A stretch of DNA of 64,000 nucleotides from a virus (taxonomy: Duplodnaviria; Caudoviricetes). Positions 15,896 through 34,293 of the stretch are shown piece after piece (within the stretch, counting starts at the first letter, position 1; each line of letters starts with the position of its first letter). Under the pieces are notes generated by a model that did not search any database, was not told the DNA's origin, and saw nothing but the letters and a program-made list of their open reading frames with translations. A program made the position numbers and the translations under genes. The stretch lies in the IMG/VR virus record IMGVR_UViG_3300032272_000009, positions 1 through 64,000 of that record; one strand, written 5' to 3'.

Positions 15896-16210
15896 ATGAG
15901 TCCAAACAAAAACAATCTAGTTGATCATAAAACTGTAGTCGATTTTAAATCTATTGGTGATCTAAACCAAAATCTTCGTGCACCAAATGAGTATAAACTT
16001 GTGACTGATGGGGAATCACTGTACCGAATTCATCCAAACTTTCCAATACCAAAAGGTCTAAAAGAAGTTTTTACTCATTTTGGTAAAAAAGTGTATCAAA
16101 GCAATGGTAAACTTCATTCGAAGTTTATGGCACTACAAAGAGTGCAACCTAGTTATAATGTAAACAAAGTGACAGTTGCGGTTCGAGAAGCATTGAGTGA
16201 AATAGATTAA
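15896..16210 (+). CDS. hypothetical protein
   Basis: ORF track; coupled. Confidence 0.6.
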   Translation: MSPNKNNLVDHKTVVDFKSIGDLNQNLRAPNEYKLVTDGESLYRIHPNFPIPKGLKEVFTHFGKKVYQSNGKLHSKFMALQRVQPSYNVNKVTVAVREALSEID

Positions 16211-16650
16211 TGAGTATCAAGCAAATAGTTACTGATGTTGATAAATTGGCTATGGTGTCTCTTCCTGTTGATGACCACAGGGAAGCTTTAACCATCATTG
16301 ATGATATAATGCACACTGCCCATGATTGCTCTCAGAAGCCTTTAGGTTGCCTCGGTTTAGCATGTAATCAGATAGGTATTTTAAAAAGAATCATAGTTGT
16401 AGATATTGCTGGTGAGTTTGTCCCGATGATAAACCCAGTGATAGATTATATCCATACTGCCGCAGGAAAAATGAATGGCAAAGAAAGTTGTTTGTCAAGG
16501 CCAAAAATAACTGTAAAGATAAAAAGATATAAAAAAATTACAGTTTCGTATACTGACATTTCAGGGGCAAGAATCACAACAAAATTCTCAAAGATGACAG
16601 CTAGAGTTATACAGCATGAAATAAACCATCTGGACGGAAAATACATATAG
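16210..16650 (+). CDS. def: peptide deformylase, C-terminally truncated phage type
   Basis: CLGLACNQIG, ESCLS and QHEINHLDG motifs. Confidence 0.92.
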   Translation: MSIKQIVTDVDKLAMVSLPVDDHREALTIIDDIMHTAHDCSQKPLGCLGLACNQIGILKRIIVVDIAGEFVPMINPVIDYIHTAAGKMNGKESCLSRPKITVKIKRYKKITVSYTDISGARITTKFSKMTARVIQHEINHLDGKYI

Positions 16651-25783: not shown

Positions 25784-26300
25784 AATAATAGTAAACGCTT
25801 ATGAAATGAAAACAATACAAGATTTGTTTAAGATCGGTATGTCGCGTGAAGTTCCTATGCTTTTAAGTAAAGATCATGGCACTCACATAAATGTAGGCGC
25901 TGGAACTTATAAAACTTTACACGGTGCTGAACCTATCGATTACCCTGAGTGGGACGCTAGAAAAGATCGATTACCATATGAAGACGAATCAGTTGACGTC
26001 ATCCATTGTTATCACTTTCTTGAGCATATGGCCGACCCTGTATTAATACTTCAAGATTTTGAAAGAGTTTTGAAAGTTGGTGGCTACACAAACATTGTCG
26101 CACCTTACTACAATTCACATTTGCAGGCGAAATGTTTAGACCACAAATCAATGTTCAATGAGTCAACGTGGGATAATCTGTTCAACCAGTATTCATATGA
26201 CAATTTTTCTGGTGAATGGAAGTTAAAAGTTCACACAACTTTTATTATGGGCGTAGAAGAAAAGAACATGGCGTTACTAACCCAATTGGTGAAGGTATAA
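25752..26300 (+). CDS. class I SAM-dependent methyltransferase (small-molecule type)
   Basis: NVGAG, LPYEDESVD, HFLEH and RVLKVGG. Confidence 0.8.
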   Translation: MILEIIMKKPEIIVNAYEMKTIQDLFKIGMSREVPMLLSKDHGTHINVGAGTYKTLHGAEPIDYPEWDARKDRLPYEDESVDVIHCYHFLEHMADPVLILQDFERVLKVGGYTNIVAPYYNSHLQAKCLDHKSMFNESTWDNLFNQYSYDNFSGEWKLKVHTTFIMGVEEKNMALLTQLVKV

Positions 26301-27199
26301 TGAAAATTTTTGGAGCGGGTCTATCAGGTTTGATTGCAGGCGTTGCAAACCCTAGAGCAAAGATTTATGAAAAAGGTGATTATGGAACACAAGGTCATCA
26401 AGCACTATTGAGGTTTAGAACTAATGCCGTAAGTGATATGACTGGCATTAAGTTTAAGAAAGTAAAAGTAATCAAGGCTATTTGGAGTAATGGTGCAGAA
26501 CGACAACCTTCGCCTAGATTGGTAGCTCTGTACTCACATAAGAACACTGGTCATTTCGAAAACAGATCAATTATGGATATCAAAACTGTTGAGCGGTTTA
26601 TTGCTCCAGATAATTTTCATCAGTTATTGGTTGATGAGTGCGAAGATAGAATAACTTATGAACATGCTGTAGACAAAGATGATTTTAAGTCTGATGAGAA
26701 CATAATAAGCACTTTGCCATTGTCGTTCAATGCAAAAATGTTAGGTTATGATTTTCCTACTGAGAAAAACATGAGTAAAATTTATGTCACTAGGGTAATT
26801 GTAGATAATTGTGATATGTATACAACTGTGTACTATCCTGATGATGACATATCAGTATATCGTGCATCTATTACTGGAAAAACATTGATAATCGAATCTA
26901 AAGATGAAATTGACAATGAATATTTAGGCATTGTGTTGAAATCTATGGGTTTAGATTCTTCTATCATAGAAATCGAGATGGGCAACCATATACAGCCTAT
27001 GGGTAAATTGTCAGACGTTAATGACAGTGAGCGCAGGGTAATGATTTACAAAATGAGTCATGATCATGGTGTATTTAGTCTTGGTAGATTTGCACTACAC
27101 AAGAATATTTTGCTTGATGATGTTGCACACGATATTAGAGTAGTAAAAGCCATGATGGCTGATGATTCTTACGGAGTTTCAACAAGGGGTAGAACATGA
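26300..27199 (+). CDS. FAD/NAD-dependent oxidoreductase
   Basis: MKIFGAGLSGLIAG...IYEK Rossmann motif; C-terminal LGRFA; TAATG coupling. Confidence 0.75.
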   Translation: MKIFGAGLSGLIAGVANPRAKIYEKGDYGTQGHQALLRFRTNAVSDMTGIKFKKVKVIKAIWSNGAERQPSPRLVALYSHKNTGHFENRSIMDIKTVERFIAPDNFHQLLVDECEDRITYEHAVDKDDFKSDENIISTLPLSFNAKMLGYDFPTEKNMSKIYVTRVIVDNCDMYTTVYYPDDDISVYRASITGKTLIIESKDEIDNEYLGIVLKSMGLDSSIIEIEMGNHIQPMGKLSDVNDSERRVMIYKMSHDHGVFSLGRFALHKNILLDDVAHDIRVVKAMMADDSYGVSTRGRT

Positions 27200-27633: not shown

Positions 27634-28184
27634 GTGACATGACAATAATAGTGACGGATACTGAAACTACCGGGTTGGTAAAGCCTATCCCTACTGATAT
27701 TCAGTTTCAACCTTTCATGACAGAAATTTATGCATGTAAGCTGGATCAGAATTTTAAATTCTTGGGAGAGTTTGGGTCTCTGGTTAGACCACCAATTCCT
27801 ATCTCTGCGGAAATAACTAAGATAACTGGTATAGATGATGCTAAGTTAATTGGCGCTCCAACTTTTGCTGAAATATATGATCCATTGTATGATTTCTTTC
27901 AAGGCGCTGATATGGTTGTTGGTCAAAACATAATGTTTGATATTAATGTTATCAATTATGAGTTGATGCGTCATGATTGGGATAAAAAGTTTTGTTATCC
28001 AAAGAGGCACGTTTGCACTATTGAGTCTTCATATCACTACCAAAACAAAAGATTAAATCTTGCAAAATTGCATGAGCTTTTGTTTGGCGAAGGGTTTGAG
28101 GATGCTCATAGAGCAAAATCTGATGTTATGGCTACCGTTAGATGTTTCATTGAGCTTGTCAAGCGTGGAGATATTGTACTATAA
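27630..28184 (+). CDS. dnaQ: DEDDh 3'-5' exonuclease (epsilon-like)
   Basis: DTETTG, GQNIMFD and AHRAKSD. Confidence 0.88.
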   Translation: MSDMTIIVTDTETTGLVKPIPTDIQFQPFMTEIYACKLDQNFKFLGEFGSLVRPPIPISAEITKITGIDDAKLIGAPTFAEIYDPLYDFFQGADMVVGQNIMFDINVINYELMRHDWDKKFCYPKRHVCTIESSYHYQNKRLNLAKLHELLFGEGFEDAHRAKSDVMATVRCFIELVKRGDIVL

Positions 28185-30991
28185 TGTACCACTTAACCCT
28201 AAAATCGGAATATTCTTTCAAACAGACTTTTAGTTTTCTGCAAGAGTTGCATGATAACTACTCACATAATAACGTCATTGGTATTGCAGATACAACTACA
28301 CTTGGTTTTTATAAACTGTATGAGATGTGTAAAAAATCTGGAAAGAAAGCAATATACGGTTTTAGGGTTTCCGTTGTTCAAGATGCAACTGAAAAGGTTA
28401 AACCTAGAGGTCAGTTTGGTAAAGAATACATAATCATAGCGAAGAATTATCATGGATTACAAGAAATTTTTATGCTGTCTAAGATTCAATCTGAAAACTT
28501 TTACTATCGTGGGAACGTTAGTTGTAGTGATATTGATAGTCTTAGTCAAAATGTCTTTGTTGTTTCAACAGACCCCGTTGCTAACAGGCTTGATTTTATT
28601 GGTGTTAATTATACTACGAGGCCAAAAGTCTTAGCATATGATTACCCAAAATTATATGTCGATAATAATTACTACACAACAAATGAAATGAAAAAGATTT
28701 ATGAGTTGATGCTTGGCGGTTCAGCAGATAACAAAACATTTCCACAGCACATCTTATACCAAGATGAGATTCGTGGTTTTGGACTTGAATGTATTGAAAA
28801 TTTACAAGCTGTCGTTGACCAGTGTGAGGATATTGAGTTTAAGAAAGCTGCAAATATTAGATACAAAGGCAAAGGCAACATTGTAGATTTATGTAAAGAA
28901 GGTGCAACAAGAAAAAACATAGATTTGTCTGATCCAGTTTACAAGGCACGTTTTGAAAGGGAGATTAATCTTTTAGCAGATAAAGATTATGGTGATTATC
29001 TGCTTGTTGTTGCCGACTTGATAAAGAGTGCTAAGAAATTCTGTTTGGTTGGTGGTGGTCGTGGTTCAAGTGCTGGATCACTAGTATGTTATTTGCTTGA
29101 TATTACAGAGGTCGATCCACTTGTTCATGGTTTGATCTTTGAGAGATTTGTTGATATAAACAGATACGATCCACCAGATGTTGACACAGATTTTCCAGAC
29201 AACGCAAGAAAAAAGGTTGTCAAATACCTAGAAAAACTTTATGGGGTAGACAACGTAAAAACAATATCTACCATCTCAAAATACAAACCAAAAATAACTA
29301 TTGGTGAGTTTGCAAAACATATGGAAATCCCAAAGTTTGAAACTGAGGCCGTAAAAGATATAATCATTGAGAGGGCTGGTGGGGATGCTCGGGCATCATT
29401 TTGTTTAGAAGATACTCTAATGGGAACAGATGTTGGCAAAGAGTTTCTCGAAAAACACCCTAACATGATTAACGTCAAATATGCAGAAGGACACAGCAAA
29501 CAGAAAGGCAAACACGCAGCTGGGGTAATTGTATGTAATGACCCAATAGTTGAGTATTGTGGTATTGATTCAAGAGATGAAACCGCAATGCTTGACAAGA
29601 AAGATGCGGAAAAACTGAACCTGTTAAAAATTGATGTTCTAGGTCTTAGAACTTTGTCAGTGTTACAAGATTGTGCCAAAGCAATAAAAATGGATTACAG
29701 AGATTATTATAAGTTACCACTCGATGATGAGAATGCTTATAAGGTATTCCAAGAAAAAAGATTGGGTGGTATATTCCAGTTTGAAGGCGAAGCAATGAAG
29801 TCTATAAATGACTCGGCCCCAATGGAGAAGTTTGAAGATATAGTTGCTGCTGGTGCTTTGGGTAGACCGGGAGCATTATCATCTGGTGGGACATCAAGGT
29901 ACGTCCAGTTAAGGAATGGTACTAGAGAGCCTTTGTACTATTGTCCTGAACATAAGAAACTGACAGAAGAAACTTATGGTATCGTCATATATCAAGAGCA
30001 AATGATGTGGTTGTGTAAAAATATTGCTGGCATGTCTTGGGAGGATGTGTCAGATTTAAGAAAGGCCGCATCAAAATCGCTAGGTGAAGAGTTTTTTGAT
30101 AAGTATAGAATCAAGTTTGTTGAAGGCGCATGTTCACTTTCTGGATACGATGAAGAGACAGCAAATAAAGCTTGGCTGGATATAAGCTCGATGGGTTCTT
30201 ATGCCTTCAACAAGTCTCACAGTGTTGTTTATGGGCAGATAAGCTACTGGACAGCATATATGAAGGCCAATTACCCATTGGAGTTTATTGCGTCAATTCT
30301 AAACAATGCTAAGGATGATGATAGCTCATTAAAAATATTGCGTGAATTCTATGAGTCTGAAGATTTAGTATTTAAAGCCGTTGATCCTTGGAAATCAAAG
30401 ACTGCATGGGAGATTATAGACGGAACTTTGCTTGGCGGCATAACAAATATAAAAGGAATTGGCGCAGCAAAAGCACTAGATATAATAAAAATGAGAGAAG
30501 GCAAGAAACCATTTACACCAGCTATGAAAAGACATATGGAGAATCCAAAAACCCCATTTGATGTACTTTACCCAGCTCAACATCATTGGGGCGAGCTGTA
30601 TAGAGACCCGCAGAAATTCGGTTTGAACAAAGTTGACTATATAAAAGATGTTGAATCGCCTAGGGATTATGCTATAATAGGCAAAATGATACATGTGGAT
30701 GATGTCAATGTTAATGATGTTCAATCAATAGCAAAAAGAGGTGGTGAGGTATTAGACGGCCCAAACATGAAAGTTCATGTAAGGCTAGAAGATGACACTG
30801 GCGTTATGATGTGTATAGTGAATAGATTTGTATATGAAAAACTATCACAAGATTTCCTTAGAGAAAAGGTTGGTGAAACCTGGTTCTGTTTGATAGGTAA
30901 AGTTATGCCTGGCGCTAAGATATTGTTCGTTAAAGAAGTGGCAAATCTGAATAGAGATATTGGTCTTAATGAATCCGAGGAACAAAGATAG
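28184..30991 (+). CDS. dnaE: DNA polymerase III alpha subunit
   Basis: GRGSSAGSL, PPDVDTDF, KIDVLGL and YAFNKSHS; PHP, HhH and OB domains. Confidence 0.95.
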   Translation: MYHLTLKSEYSFKQTFSFLQELHDNYSHNNVIGIADTTTLGFYKLYEMCKKSGKKAIYGFRVSVVQDATEKVKPRGQFGKEYIIIAKNYHGLQEIFMLSKIQSENFYYRGNVSCSDIDSLSQNVFVVSTDPVANRLDFIGVNYTTRPKVLAYDYPKLYVDNNYYTTNEMKKIYELMLGGSADNKTFPQHILYQDEIRGFGLECIENLQAVVDQCEDIEFKKAANIRYKGKGNIVDLCKEGATRKNIDLSDPVYKARFEREINLLADKDYGDYLLVVADLIKSAKKFCLVGGGRGSSAGSLVCYLLDITEVDPLVHGLIFERFVDINRYDPPDVDTDFPDNARKKVVKYLEKLYGVDNVKTISTISKYKPKITIGEFAKHMEIPKFETEAVKDIIIERAGGDARASFCLEDTLMGTDVGKEFLEKHPNMINVKYAEGHSKQKGKHAAGVIVCNDPIVEYCGIDSRDETAMLDKKDAEKLNLLKIDVLGLRTLSVLQDCAKAIKMDYRDYYKLPLDDENAYKVFQEKRLGGIFQFEGEAMKSINDSAPMEKFEDIVAAGALGRPGALSSGGTSRYVQLRNGTREPLYYCPEHKKLTEETYGIVIYQEQMMWLCKNIAGMSWEDVSDLRKAASKSLGEEFFDKYRIKFVEGACSLSGYDEETANKAWLDISSMGSYAFNKSHSVVYGQISYWTAYMKANYPLEFIASILNNAKDDDSSLKILREFYESEDLVFKAVDPWKSKTAWEIIDGTLLGGITNIKGIGAAKALDIIKMREGKKPFTPAMKRHMENPKTPFDVLYPAQHHWGELYRDPQKFGLNKVDYIKDVESPRDYAIIGKMIHVDDVNVNDVQSIAKRGGEVLDGPNMKVHVRLEDDTGVMMCIVNRFVYEKLSQDFLREKVGETWFCLIGKVMPGAKILFVKEVANLNRDIGLNESEEQR

Positions 30992-31416
30992 TGAATTTCA
31001 TAGTATTTAGTGGCATCTCAGAATCATTTAACAAGGCTATAATAAGTGCTTGTTTAGAAAAAACAAACTATAGAGATTATTTTGTAAATAGAGACCCGAG
31101 CAACTGTATGGCTCTAAATTTTATACAAGATAAAATCGATACTATTGAGCAAATGGACGAATATATTGGTTTTTTAAATTATTTCAAAGAAGGTGTAGAT
31201 TTAGCTGTATTGATAACATGTGATAATGAAGCATTAGAAAAAAGATTCGCAGATTATAACAAAATTTTTACCAGTAATGAATCATTTTTAGAACGACAAG
31301 AGGTGATAAAACAGTATTTTGATAAAGCGAAATATCAAAACTGTATAGAAATAAATGCTACGGACAAAACTGTAGATCAATGTGTCAAGTTAATAATAAA
31401 CAAACTAGAGGAATAA
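30991..31416 (+). CDS. nucleotide-kinase-like protein with degenerate P-loop
   Basis: Beta1 FIVFSG and DLAVLITCDNEALEKRF resemble the dTMP kinase fold; no GK(S/T). Confidence 0.45.
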   Translation: MNFIVFSGISESFNKAIISACLEKTNYRDYFVNRDPSNCMALNFIQDKIDTIEQMDEYIGFLNYFKEGVDLAVLITCDNEALEKRFADYNKIFTSNESFLERQEVIKQYFDKAKYQNCIEINATDKTVDQCVKLIINKLEE

Positions 31417-31422
31417 TAAGTT

Positions 31423-32325
31423 ATGCCAGTCAATAATGAATTAGAAGAGCGCCCACTTTTGGTAAATCTGAAGATAGGTGAAAAACCTAAAACACGGTTC
31501 TTGCATGGTCTTGATGCAGTAAATGTTCGAATGATTGATTGCCCTACCACAGAAGACTTGATGAAGTATATCCCAGAATTTGCGTCTGGTACTTGGGAAG
31601 ACAAATCAAAAACAGATTTTACTGATGCTGAGCGTGCTCAAGTAGTAGATGATCTGTTTGCAGGTTATATCCTGCCTACAGCTCTTGAAACCATCAAGAT
31701 GACATTTATCATCGAAGGTATTGATTTGGTTGATGTATGCCATCTTATCCGCCATAGAACTTTGTCATTCTCTGCTCAAGGTACTGGTGACCGTGACATG
31801 CGAAATGATGATATTTTGGTCAAGCCTTCAATTCTTGGTAATAAAAAGTATGCTGACAGATTTGAGAAACTGATGCTTGACGCAAAAGACCTGTATGCTG
31901 ATGTAACAGATGATCCAGATATGCCTATTCTTGATGCTCGCACATTCATGCCACGCTGTACATCAAACTACTACTATGTGTCTGGCGATCTTAAAGCAAT
32001 CATGGCTTTTGTTGGTCAGCGCAAGGATGAGTCTATTGAGCCAGAAACAATGAACATCTTTGCTCTCAAATTGTGGATTGAAGTTGTTAAGCGTTTTCCA
32101 CAACTAAAAGGAAAAATTGACCTGTTATCACCAGATCATTTTGCAATTGAAACGTCTATAGGTGGTAGAAGTAGCAATTTCTACAAACCTGAACCAAAGA
32201 ACGATATTTATGAGTATCGTCTTGACTGGTTCATGAGAGACAAAATGCGCCAAGAAATGACTGGTGGGCAAGATTACATCATCATGCGTGACAAACTGAT
32301 TGATCAATTTAATGAAATAGTTTAA
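31423..32325 (+). CDS. ThyX-fold flavoprotein with diverged active site
   Basis: HLIRHRTLSFSAQGTGDR and LDARTFMP versus canonical QLVRHRxxSxxxxSxRY. Confidence 0.8.
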   Translation: MPVNNELEERPLLVNLKIGEKPKTRFLHGLDAVNVRMIDCPTTEDLMKYIPEFASGTWEDKSKTDFTDAERAQVVDDLFAGYILPTALETIKMTFIIEGIDLVDVCHLIRHRTLSFSAQGTGDRDMRNDDILVKPSILGNKKYADRFEKLMLDAKDLYADVTDDPDMPILDARTFMPRCTSNYYYVSGDLKAIMAFVGQRKDESIEPETMNIFALKLWIEVVKRFPQLKGKIDLLSPDHFAIETSIGGRSSNFYKPEPKNDIYEYRLDWFMRDKMRQEMTGGQDYIIMRDKLIDQFNEIV

Positions 32326-32331
32326 GAGGTA

Positions 32332-32625
32332 GTGATGGCTAAGAAAAAGATAATTCTGGTTGAGGGCGACAAACATTTTGGTTTGATTGAAAACTATATC
32401 AATGCAGATGAAAATGATCTACCAACGCCAGAGCATGTCTTACAAGATGAGTTTAACAGGATGATGGATAAAATAAAATCATTGGTTAATGTAAGCTCAA
32501 TAATCGAAAATAAAGAAGTGAAGCTTGTATTGGAAGAAAAGATTGCGGCATATAAGGATGCTTCTCAATCTTTGCTTTATGTAGTTGAGAAAATAAATCA
32601 ATTCAAAATGGAGATAAAACAGTGA
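32332..32625 (+). CDS. hypothetical protein
   Basis: GAGG RBS; coupled. Confidence 0.55.
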   Translation: MMAKKKIILVEGDKHFGLIENYINADENDLPTPEHVLQDEFNRMMDKIKSLVNVSSIIENKEVKLVLEEKIAAYKDASQSLLYVVEKINQFKMEIKQ

Positions 32626-33200
32626 GCAATATTCAACACCCTGAAATGGTAAAAGGTTTGGCAAAAAGTGGCGCACAGATAATCAATGATTTTACGCCAG
32701 ATACAGCCCATATACTGCACATGGCAATTGGGATAGCTGGAGAATCTGGTGAGTTAGCTTCTGTCATTCACTCGAAATTTGAGTTTGAGGCAATTGACAA
32801 AAAGAACGTCGTGGAAGAGCTTGGTGATCTTGAGTTTTATCTTGAGGGGTTTCGACAGGGGTTAGGCATTAGTCGCTTGGAAACAATTGTGGATGATACA
32901 TCATATGACATGGATCGTGGGATTATGTCAAGTGCAAAAAATGGTGCCATGTTCTTAAATATTGCGTCATCAATCTTGCTTGACCAGATAAAGAAAGTTG
33001 CATTCTATGTCAAGCCAGTAAATACTGACAACGTGGTAAAATCTCTTATCAAGATTGAAGGTCATATGTATATCTTGAGAAAGTGTTTTTATATTACGTA
33101 TGAGCAGACTCTCGAACACAACATAGCCAAGCTTGGTGATCGCTATCAAGGCCATCAATATTCTGATGAACAGGCAATAGCTAGAGCTGATAAAAACTAG
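32622..33200 (+). CDS. MazG-like NTP pyrophosphohydrolase with internal duplication
   Basis: GIAGESGEL...EELGDLEFY; second half LLDQIKK...HNIAKLGDRY. Confidence 0.8.
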   Translation: MSNIQHPEMVKGLAKSGAQIINDFTPDTAHILHMAIGIAGESGELASVIHSKFEFEAIDKKNVVEELGDLEFYLEGFRQGLGISRLETIVDDTSYDMDRGIMSSAKNGAMFLNIASSILLDQIKKVAFYVKPVNTDNVVKSLIKIEGHMYILRKCFYITYEQTLEHNIAKLGDRYQGHQYSDEQAIARADKN

Positions 33201-33445
33201 TGCAACAAACCAGAGTTGAATCTGCAATAGAAAGAGCTTGTGATATTATCACAGGCTTTTTTCTTTCGTGGTGTTTGTATGAATTTTATATAAGAAACCA
33301 TCCTGAGTTTTCAAGTTTGTATATAGTATCTTGTTTTACCGCAGTATCATTGATAAGAGGCTATTACTGGCGCAGATTCTTCAATAGAGGTTTGCATAAA
33401 ATTGTACATAAATACGCAAACAAAATCTTTAAGAGGTTAAAATGA
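33200..33445 (+). CDS. small membrane protein (DUF7220-like)
   Basis: QTRVESAIE...[17 protein letters not shown]. Confidence 0.65.
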
Positions 33446-34293
33446 AAGAATATTTGAAGTTATGTAACAGAGTGATCAACGAAGGTCACTGGGTTACTAA
33501 CAAAAGAACTGGTAAGCGTTGTCTTACTGTTATAAATGCAGACTTAGAGTATTATGTAGGCGATGGTACTCTTCCAGTTTTGACTACTAAAAAACTGTTC
33601 TGGAAACCTGCAATTGCAGAGATGCTTGGATACTTGCGAGGTTATACAAGTGCTGCTCAGTTCAGAAGGCTTGGATGTAATACATGGAATGCAAATGCTA
33701 ATGAAAATTCTGCTTGGCTTGCAAACAGGTTTAGAACTGGTGTAGATGACATGGGCAGATGTTACGGTGCTCAAGGTAGAGACTGGAGAAACCCAGAAAA
33801 TGAATCTATCGACCAGTTAAGAAATATTTACAATGACCTTCGAAATGGGATTGATAATAGAAGTGAGATTCTTACTTTTATGAATCCCGGAGAGAGAGAC
33901 AGGGCTTGTTTAAATTCCTGTATGCACACACACACCTTTAGTTTGCTGGATGGTGGCTTGTATTTGACATCATACCAGAGGTCTGATGACCTGCCACTAG
34001 GACATGGCTTTAATCAGGTGCAGGTGGCTTGGTTGTTGATGATAATGGCACAGATAACAGGCTTAAGAGCTGAGACAGCCTATCATAAAATAGTCAATGC
34101 TCATATTTATGAAGACCAGTTGCAACAGTTGCAGGATGTTCAATTGGTGCGGGAGCCTCTAAACCTTCCAACTTTGCGAATAAATCCTGAGATTAAAACA
34201 CTGGAAGACTTAGAGACTTGGGTTACTCTGGATGATTTTGAACTTTTAGATTATGAACATCATCCTGCGATAAAATATGAATTTAGTGTTTAG
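33442..34293 (+). CDS. thyA: thymidylate synthase
   Basis: SCMHTH (catalytic Cys), [13 protein letters not shown] (dUMP-specifying Asn) and NAHIY. Confidence 0.93.

Follow-up and report, generated by a model that had tools for sequence, protein, structure and literature searches.

The ThyX paralogue of the phage studied here, which we call ThyX*, belongs to a virus-only family whose product, to judge from sequence comparison, is probably a DNA pyrimidine different from thymidylate itself. Its gene (31423..32325, + strand) lies in a 64-kb window, the whole stretch of DNA analysed (~37% GC), taken from a 72.7-kb virus record that CheckV rates as 100% complete. It encodes a 300-aa protein with the ThyX fold in which the RHR motif is kept and the S-x-R-Y loop is replaced. 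Established for ThyX* are its fold, the residues kept and lost, its co-residence with canonical synthases, its gene linkage, purifying selection and its restriction to viruses.

Fold and active site of ThyX*

The ThyX* reading frame has a Shine-Dalgarno sequence (GAGGA) 10-14 nt 5' of its start, and the start is further backed by an MPxNN N-terminus conserved across the family. An earlier note on this DNA had called the product a ThyX-fold protein and had named structure prediction as one check, and the identification was borne out. Pfam Thy1 (PF02511) matched ThyX* at 55.9 bits (cut-off 24.8), over aa 64-226 only, and a single-sequence search of the PDB barely reached ThyX (E 0.15). The AF2 model, made from a 32-sequence alignment, has the ThyX fold with a pLDDT of 91.8, and ThyX structures were its sole matches (Foldseek probability 1.0). 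By VIA the model aligned with M. tuberculosis ThyX (3gwc_B) at Z 16.5 and rmsd 3.5 over 212 residues, the first unrelated fold appearing only at Z 4.4. Family-specific extensions occupy the N-terminus (aa 1-60, including a conserved Pro) and the C-terminus (aa 230-300).

Residue equivalences were taken from two independent alignments, one of the family profile against PDB ThyX chains and one by hhalign against canonical ThyX from the same phages (probability 97.4%). The RHR segment, within the string H107-L-I-R110-H111-R112-T-L-S-F-S-A-Q-G120-T121-G122-D123-R124, and the segment D171-A-R173-x3-P177 are both present, with exactly the letters that the earlier note had quoted. R110, H111 and R112 correspond to R78, H79 and R80 of the T. 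maritima FAD motif, R173 to the dUMP-binding R147, and R200 to the uracil-activating R174, which acts on dUMP via N3 (PMC8316439). R110, R112, R173 and R200 are invariant, even across the comparison with canonical ThyX. Some family members (L045, L053-L056, L058, L059 and L077) have RYR or RTR in place of RHR and GDKWW or AEKWW as the loop; both flanking Arg are invariant even there.

The S-x-R-Y loop of ThyX is replaced in ThyX* by G120-T-G-D-R-D-M-R. The canonical Ser (T. maritima S88) falls on G120 in both alignments, a position that is Cys in most relatives, whereas for T. maritima R90 and Y91 the profile alignment gives G122 and D123 as counterparts and the hhalign one gives a gap. The position of the conserved His53, which is reported to be a folate-site residue, is L84 (profile) or I83 (hhalign) in ThyX*; this His is invariant among the canonical ThyX copies of phages. 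S88, R90 and Y91 are conserved across ThyX. In the T. maritima enzyme S88A, R90A and Y91A each slow carbon transfer, Y91A by more than 100-fold (PMC8316439); the Tyr serves as a lid covering C5 and N5 (PMC6514825). With the FAD site and the uracil and phosphate anchors kept, and with S88, R90, Y91 and His53 lost, it is the carbon-handling part of the active site that has been rebuilt.

The claim that the Ser, Arg and Tyr are replaced thus stands on the canonical spacing, but it is slightly overstated, because a Thr/Ser...Arg/Lys pair is conserved one residue later: the family keeps [TS]-x-[DE]-[RK] after the G120 position (T121...R124 in ThyX*), with Trp next in some subgroups. Given the one-residue insertion, T121...R124 could partly mimic the Ser and Arg of S-x-R-Y. 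His107 does occupy the place of the upstream Gln, as had been stated, but this Gln is not universal, being Glu in M. tuberculosis ThyX.

Within the family, 117 sequences combine Cys120 with Thr106 and 46 combine Gly120 with Cys106, the Gly120 group being the window phage's own clade, with six exceptions. A relocation of an active-site Cys between positions 106 and 120 is possible; we draw no conclusion about a relocated catalytic Cys, since the pattern follows one clade with exceptions.

Range and conservation of the ThyX* family

The remodelled loop is a family trait, kept in at least 120 relatives down to 33% identity (90% cluster set), and so is not due to chance. A profile search of 50% representatives found 74 clusters at E<1e-30 and 344 at E<1e-10, and 248 ThyX* loci were found in IMG/VR. 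There was no match among 185 579 cellular species genomes; the family is virus-only. The only cultured ThyX* relative among 50 697 phage records was in Geobacillus phage GR1 (35% identity, tblastn), and a megablast search for close cultured relatives of the window phage gave no match. Our literature search found no paper characterising the ThyX* family or phage GR1.

ThyX* is 85, 79, 74 and 65% identical to its counterparts in the relatives L003, L004, L005 and L007, respectively, for which the DnaE values are 89, 67, 67 and 48%; synonymous sites are saturated. ThyX* is therefore under strong constraint, and is better conserved than DnaE against three of these four relatives.

One metagenomic protein (P0143, 551 aa) fuses a ThyX* domain to an N-terminal region with a match to glycosyltransferase family 2. 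We set fusions aside as a clue to function, because this match is sub-threshold (22.1 vs 23.3 bits) and an HNH fusion is uninformative.

Canonical synthases beside ThyX*

Downstream of ThyX* the window phage encodes a canonical ThyA of the Vibrionales/Alteromonadales type (33442..34293, + strand, 283 aa), which matches PF00303 at 239.6 bits. The earlier note had credited it with the catalytic Cys and the dUMP-specifying Asn, correctly so: Cys160 and Asn191 are present at V. parahaemolyticus numbering, as are Met161, Arg22, Arg140, Arg180, His221, Tyr223 and Trp82, and by these residues the enzyme is intact. Position 141 is Ser in the window phage and Gly in Vibrio, and a Ser stands at the second dimer-interface Arg position. 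The V. parahaemolyticus enzyme is a measured, somewhat slow dTMP synthase (PMC6005164). Identity is 61-64% to ThyA of Vibrio phage SSP002 and of other Vibrio, Cronobacter and Providencia phages; the exact numbering and the unusual Met161 (VAAP clade) suggest a host or gene donor of Vibrionales/Alteromonadales type.

Such co-residence recurs in the family. Of 39 long relatives, 14 encode a canonical ThyX and two a ThyA besides ThyX*, making 16 with a canonical synthase; a third ThyA-like match is divergent (53.6 bits) and comes from one of the records with a canonical ThyX. The co-resident canonical ThyX proteins score 115-182 bits, are 216-271 aa long and are often encoded 2-4 kb from ThyX*, and RHR-x7-S-x-R-Y is kept in all 13 copies recovered from fetched loci. 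A canonical synthase is found beside ThyX* even in phage genomes of only ~40 kb.

The sister phage L003 provides a specific instance. Its gene order is the same as that of the window phage: the MazG-like gene lies on the upstream side and an M15 peptidase gene, in convergent orientation, on the downstream side; between these flanks L003 has a canonical ThyX, in the slot where the window phage has a DUF7220 gene and ThyA. ThyA and ThyX have thus been swapped in one slot while ThyX* was kept, which indicates that a canonical synthase of either type is held besides ThyX*.

These observations bear on the proposal in the earlier note that ThyX* is not a redundant dTMP synthase. It has strong comparative support and is strengthened by the co-residence, by the slot swap with ThyX* retained, by the virus-only distribution and by the nucleotide-pool neighbours described below. 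ThyA and ThyX can, however, share a genome, as they do in M. tuberculosis and C. glutamicum (titles of PDB 3fnn and 3ge9). Furthermore, 12 of 17 near-complete relatives carrying ThyX* have no other synthase, a pattern that would also suit a ThyX* that still makes dTMP. Among complete relatives, four have a dCMP deaminase and ThyX* as the sole synthase-like gene, which favours dUMP over dCMP as the substrate.

Gene neighbourhood

We clustered the ORFs of 82 ThyX* loci and annotated the clusters. A nucleoside 2-deoxyribosyltransferase (PF05014) is nearly universal, at 78 of the 82 loci; its best PDB match is 6evs, a true NDT (E 3.5e-24), and the catalytic Glu is conserved. Other partners are a YfbR-like HD hydrolase (nucleotidase; 60 loci), a MazG/dUTPase_2-like enzyme (46), DnaE (40), a sugar epimerase (26), PolA (24) and dCMP deaminase (22). 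A member of the thymidylate-kinase/deoxynucleoside-kinase superfamily also recurs near ThyX* (best PDB match YorR, 2axp, E 7e-12). The GR1-type loci additionally have a glycosyltransferase and a nitroreductase-like protein. Specifically, in GR1 (L001, 7286-8969), L069 and L073 a nitroreductase/dihydropteridine-reductase-like flavoprotein is encoded directly 5' of ThyX*, in a block that also holds the glycosyltransferase and a thioredoxin; this block may supply a dedicated reductase for flavin and, at a later stage, glycosylation.

In the window phage, + strand genes from 17.5 to 34.3 kb form a replication/nucleotide module, comprising a Dda-like helicase, ligase, Sak4, SSB, a Cas4-type exonuclease, an SF2 helicase, a SAM methyltransferase, a flavin/NAD-binding protein, a HAD phosphatase, an epsilon-like exonuclease, DnaE and the genes that follow it as far as ThyA. 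The DnaE-type replicative polymerase gene (28184..30991, + strand) heads a co-directional string with ThyX*. Directly 5' of ThyX* lies the gene for a 141-aa thymidylate-kinase/deoxynucleoside-kinase-like protein (30991..31416, + strand). Directly 3' is that for a 97-aa protein with no assigned function, present only in the window phage and L003 (32332..32625, + strand), followed by a MazG-like nucleoside triphosphate pyrophosphohydrolase (32622..33200, + strand, 192 aa; phrog_229, 96.7 bits), which is conserved in L003, and the DUF7220 protein (33200..33445, + strand, 81 aa), which is absent from L003. A peptide deformylase homologue (16210-16650, + strand; phrog_2890, 112 bits) is also found within the replication module.

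Several usual partners are missing here. No deoxyribosyltransferase and no YfbR-type HD gene was detected in the window phage's genome with Pfam models and the family profile; these same searches speak against a hidden divergent form of either, and the upstream 141-aa ORF was rejected as a candidate deoxyribosyltransferase because it is kinase-like instead. A dCMP deaminase was not found in the window phage, and no glycosyltransferase was seen among its genes that were scanned. The Walker A motif of the kinase-like protein, GIDKSGKTS in all 12 aligned relatives, is GISESFNKA in the window phage, its Gly-Lys being lost, and the protein evolves fast (55% identity to its L003 counterpart); it is probably no longer a kinase. 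The window lineage thus keeps a constrained ThyX*, a MazG-like enzyme and a canonical synthase, with the usual partners absent. From the absence of the deoxyribosyltransferase and HD genes, the lost P-loop and the lack of a glycosyltransferase, the pathway in the window phage would be either incomplete or different.

The methyltransferase, flavin/NAD protein and HAD phosphatase genes occupy the place of the deoxyribosyltransferase and HD genes in L004, L005 and L007; they belong to the usual complement of DnaE-type modules. The flavin/NAD(P)-binding Rossmann protein (26216-27199, + strand; phrog_4828, probable start at residue 29) has no Pfam match. It is encoded in 362 phage records, among them those of PB1-like Pseudomonas phages, Wifcevirus and Serratia MTx, and the ThyX* query gave no relative in any of these records. 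It looks like a general, conserved gene of DnaE-type phage replication modules. The idea that the whole 11-gene string is one base-modification pathway is weakened by this wide occurrence in phages where no ThyX* relative was found.

Proposed function

We suggest that ThyX* is a ThyX-descended, predicted active flavin enzyme, and that dTMP supply in the window phage is left to ThyA. ThyX* would bind FAD and a uracil deoxynucleotide in the manner of ThyX, via RHR, R173 and R200. Its lid/acid-catalyst loop (Ser88/Arg90/Tyr91) and His53 appear rebuilt, the loop now carrying D123/R124, a conserved pair of carboxylate and base, and after this rebuilding the carbon transfer to C5 probably ends differently. 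Most simply, the exocyclic methylene would be hydrated rather than reduced, giving 5-hydroxymethyl-dUMP; alternatively, another aldehyde could be the donor, leaving a larger C5 substituent. Across the wider family, the thymidylate-kinase-like kinase encoded next to ThyX* would then phosphorylate the product for incorporation by the phage polymerase, with the HD, MazG and deoxyribosyltransferase partners shaping the pool that competes with it. The glycosyltransferase of GR1-type loci and the sugar epimerase of 26 loci would count for a hydroxyl-bearing product. For each catalytic step, as for the substrate and the product, we infer rather than observe.

That ThyX* is a neofunctionalised flavoenzyme adding a non-methyl group to C5 of dUMP, with 5-hydroxymethyl-dUMP as the simplest product, seems to us to have about an even chance of being right. 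We hold somewhat more tentatively that ThyX* is the founder of an undescribed, virus-only flavin pathway whose product is a non-canonical DNA pyrimidine, either 5-hydroxymethyl-dUMP or an adduct with a larger C5 group. Under this broader reading the window lineage would be a pared-down version beside a normal ThyA, implying partial thymine replacement, and ThyX* would be a ThyX-fold counterpart of the ThyA-type hydroxymethylases, distributed across hundreds of uncultured phage lineages.

A possible objection is that ThyX* is still a dTMP synthase, with an odd loop or an unusual carbon or electron donor. The module would then be a dTTP-boosting or salvage set of an AT-rich phage, with the extra ThyA or ThyX serving for dosage or as back-up. 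We consider this unlikely, though the most probable of the alternatives. Besides the relatives that have no other synthase and the bacteria that have two, it can draw on the retention of RHR, R173 and R200, and on the conserved [TS]-x-[DE]-[RK], which might substitute for the Ser and Arg. Free formaldehyde is usable by T. maritima ThyX (PMC8316439), and dCMP deaminase, a dUTPase-like enzyme, a synthase and a thymidylate-kinase-like kinase together make up a classical dTTP route. This objection must, however, accommodate the loss of His53 and of the Tyr lid/acid catalyst, whose mutation alone is so damaging in T. maritima, as well as canonical synthases that are kept beside ThyX* in ~40-kb genomes and exchanged in a single slot; it also leaves the near-universal deoxyribosyltransferase linkage unexplained.

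That linkage would be accounted for if ThyX* joined dUMP to a sugar-derived aldehyde (e.g. deoxyribose from the deoxyribosyltransferase/HD pair) to give a C5 polyhydroxyalkyl chain, a product that can be likened to the 5-(dihydroxypentyl)uracil of SP-15, YerA41 and Carin-5. All three of these phages, reported to have T-modified DNA, carry a ThyX-derived gene and a PF05014 gene; the flavin of ThyX forms a carbinolamine with an aldehyde (PMC8316439); and the absence of the lid Tyr and His53 from ThyX* would fit as well. Nevertheless, both the deoxyribosyltransferase and the HD gene are missing from the window phage, ThyX* has no detectable sequence kinship to the SP-15 gp130 family (see below), and the chemistry is hypothetical. 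We judge this reading improbable.

There is likewise only a slim chance, in our estimation, that ThyX* acts outside nucleotide synthesis, as a nucleotide-binding regulator, a flavin reductase or an enzyme of DNA, nucleosides or free bases. The missing partner genes of the window phage, the loss of several phosphate ligands (R74, S88 and R90) and the big family-specific extensions with their conserved N-terminal Pro could suit such a role, but the phosphate-binding R173 and the flavin motif are retained and the consistent neighbours are dNMP/dNTP enzymes.

Of the alternative chemistries raised in the earlier note (hydroxymethylation, hydroxylation or dCMP methylation), the last is the least supported, and modification of dCMP to its 5-methyl or 5-hydroxymethyl form, as a flavin counterpart of T4 gp42 with dTMP coming from ThyA, is very improbable: the gene set is T4-like, with a synthase and its paralogue, a dUTPase_2/MazG-type enzyme (gp56 class) and dCMP deaminase, and D123, D125 and D202, which are new and invariant carboxylates, could recognise the amino group at N4, but R200, whose equivalent R174 activates uracil through N3 (PMC8316439), is invariant, and in the four complete relatives with a dCMP deaminase ThyX* is the sole possible consumer of dUMP.

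Should ThyX* prove to make a modified nucleotide, no ThyX-fold enzyme before it would have been shown to go beyond C5 methylation, and it could be a new flavoenzyme for C5-modified nucleotides. Its gene would also mark hundreds of phages, uncultured and mostly aquatic, as having modified DNA; DNA modification bears on evasion of restriction and CRISPR, on sequencing bias and on metagenome assembly. If ThyX* is instead a true dTMP synthase, then ThyX catalysis tolerates loss of the Ser/Arg/Tyr loop. The cultured member, Geobacillus phage GR1, makes the question directly testable. Distinctive in the window phage are the ThyA/ThyX slot swap, which with its sister phage forms a clean natural experiment, and a partner-less ThyX* of the Gly120 type.

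Comparison with known systems

ThyX/FDTS (EC 2.1.1.148; T. maritima TM0449, M. tuberculosis ThyX) has in common with ThyX* the fold, RHR and the equivalents of R147 and R174. The two are only 14-19% identical, however, and ThyX* lacks Ser88, Arg90, Tyr91 and His53; unlike ThyX/FDTS it has a 60-aa N-terminal and a 70-aa C-terminal extension, is virus-only and is co-resident with canonical ThyX or ThyA.

PolB, the UMP/dUMP C5-methylase of polyoxin biosynthesis (PDB 4p5a, 4p5b), is known to be a ThyX paralogue that has taken on another role, and was nominally the top PDB profile match of ThyX*. We rejected orthology because the scores are no nearer to PolB than to ordinary M. tuberculosis ThyX (E 3.9e-6 vs 4.4e-6; VIA Z 15.3 vs 16.5). 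Moreover, PolB still methylates and comes from a Streptomyces antibiotic cluster, whereas ThyX* comes from a phage replication module.

Phage SP-15 has two Thy1 proteins, of which gp9 is the presumed synthase and gp130 the hypothesised 5-hmdUMP synthase (PMC5977210). Like ThyX*, gp130 and its counterparts Carin-5 gp049 and YerA41 gp081 represent a second Thy1-family protein beside a presumed true synthase (as gp130 is beside gp9), and their function is putative, as is that of ThyX*. A PF05014 deoxyribosyltransferase gene is present in SP-15 (1 kb 5' of gene 130), Carin-5, YerA41 and GR1, and absent from the window phage. Membership of ThyX* in the gp130 family was rejected, the association with a deoxyribosyltransferase gene being all that is common: hhalign gave a probability of 0.72%, the likeness of gp130 to ThyX* is at fold level only (Foldseek E 4.4e-6, TM 0.45), and the RHR motif was not found in the gp130 sequence. 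The ThyX* family profile hit nothing at E<=0.01 in the SP-15, Carin-5 and YerA41 genomes, vs 392 bits in GR1. Separately, YerA41_086 (MW570730.1, 41713-42045) is annotated as a 'mannosyltransferase' and scores 52.6 bits on the Pfam nucleoside 2-deoxyribosyltransferase (cut-off 28.8); that annotation looks wrong.

Z-genome phages, which use an NDT-family enzyme to remove the canonical nucleotide, resemble the ThyX* set in that PurZ, DatZ, MazZ and DmtZ likewise bring together a core-enzyme paralogue, an HD dNTPase, a MazG-like enzyme and an NDT-family enzyme near a polymerase (PMC12884076). They differ in having a purine target and another synthase, and the HD and NDT genes are absent from the window phage.

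The known 5-hmdUMP synthases belong to the ThyA superfamily, where a synthase paralogue makes the modified nucleotide before replication (PMC5889632). These ThyA-family hydroxymethylases (T4 gp42 and the dUMP hydroxymethyltransferases of PhiW-14 and SP10) have a fold unrelated to that of ThyX*, use a Cys nucleophile and are flavin-free, but their logic is the one that we propose for ThyX*. In T4, the paralogue for the modified nucleotide coexists with a true thymidylate synthase.
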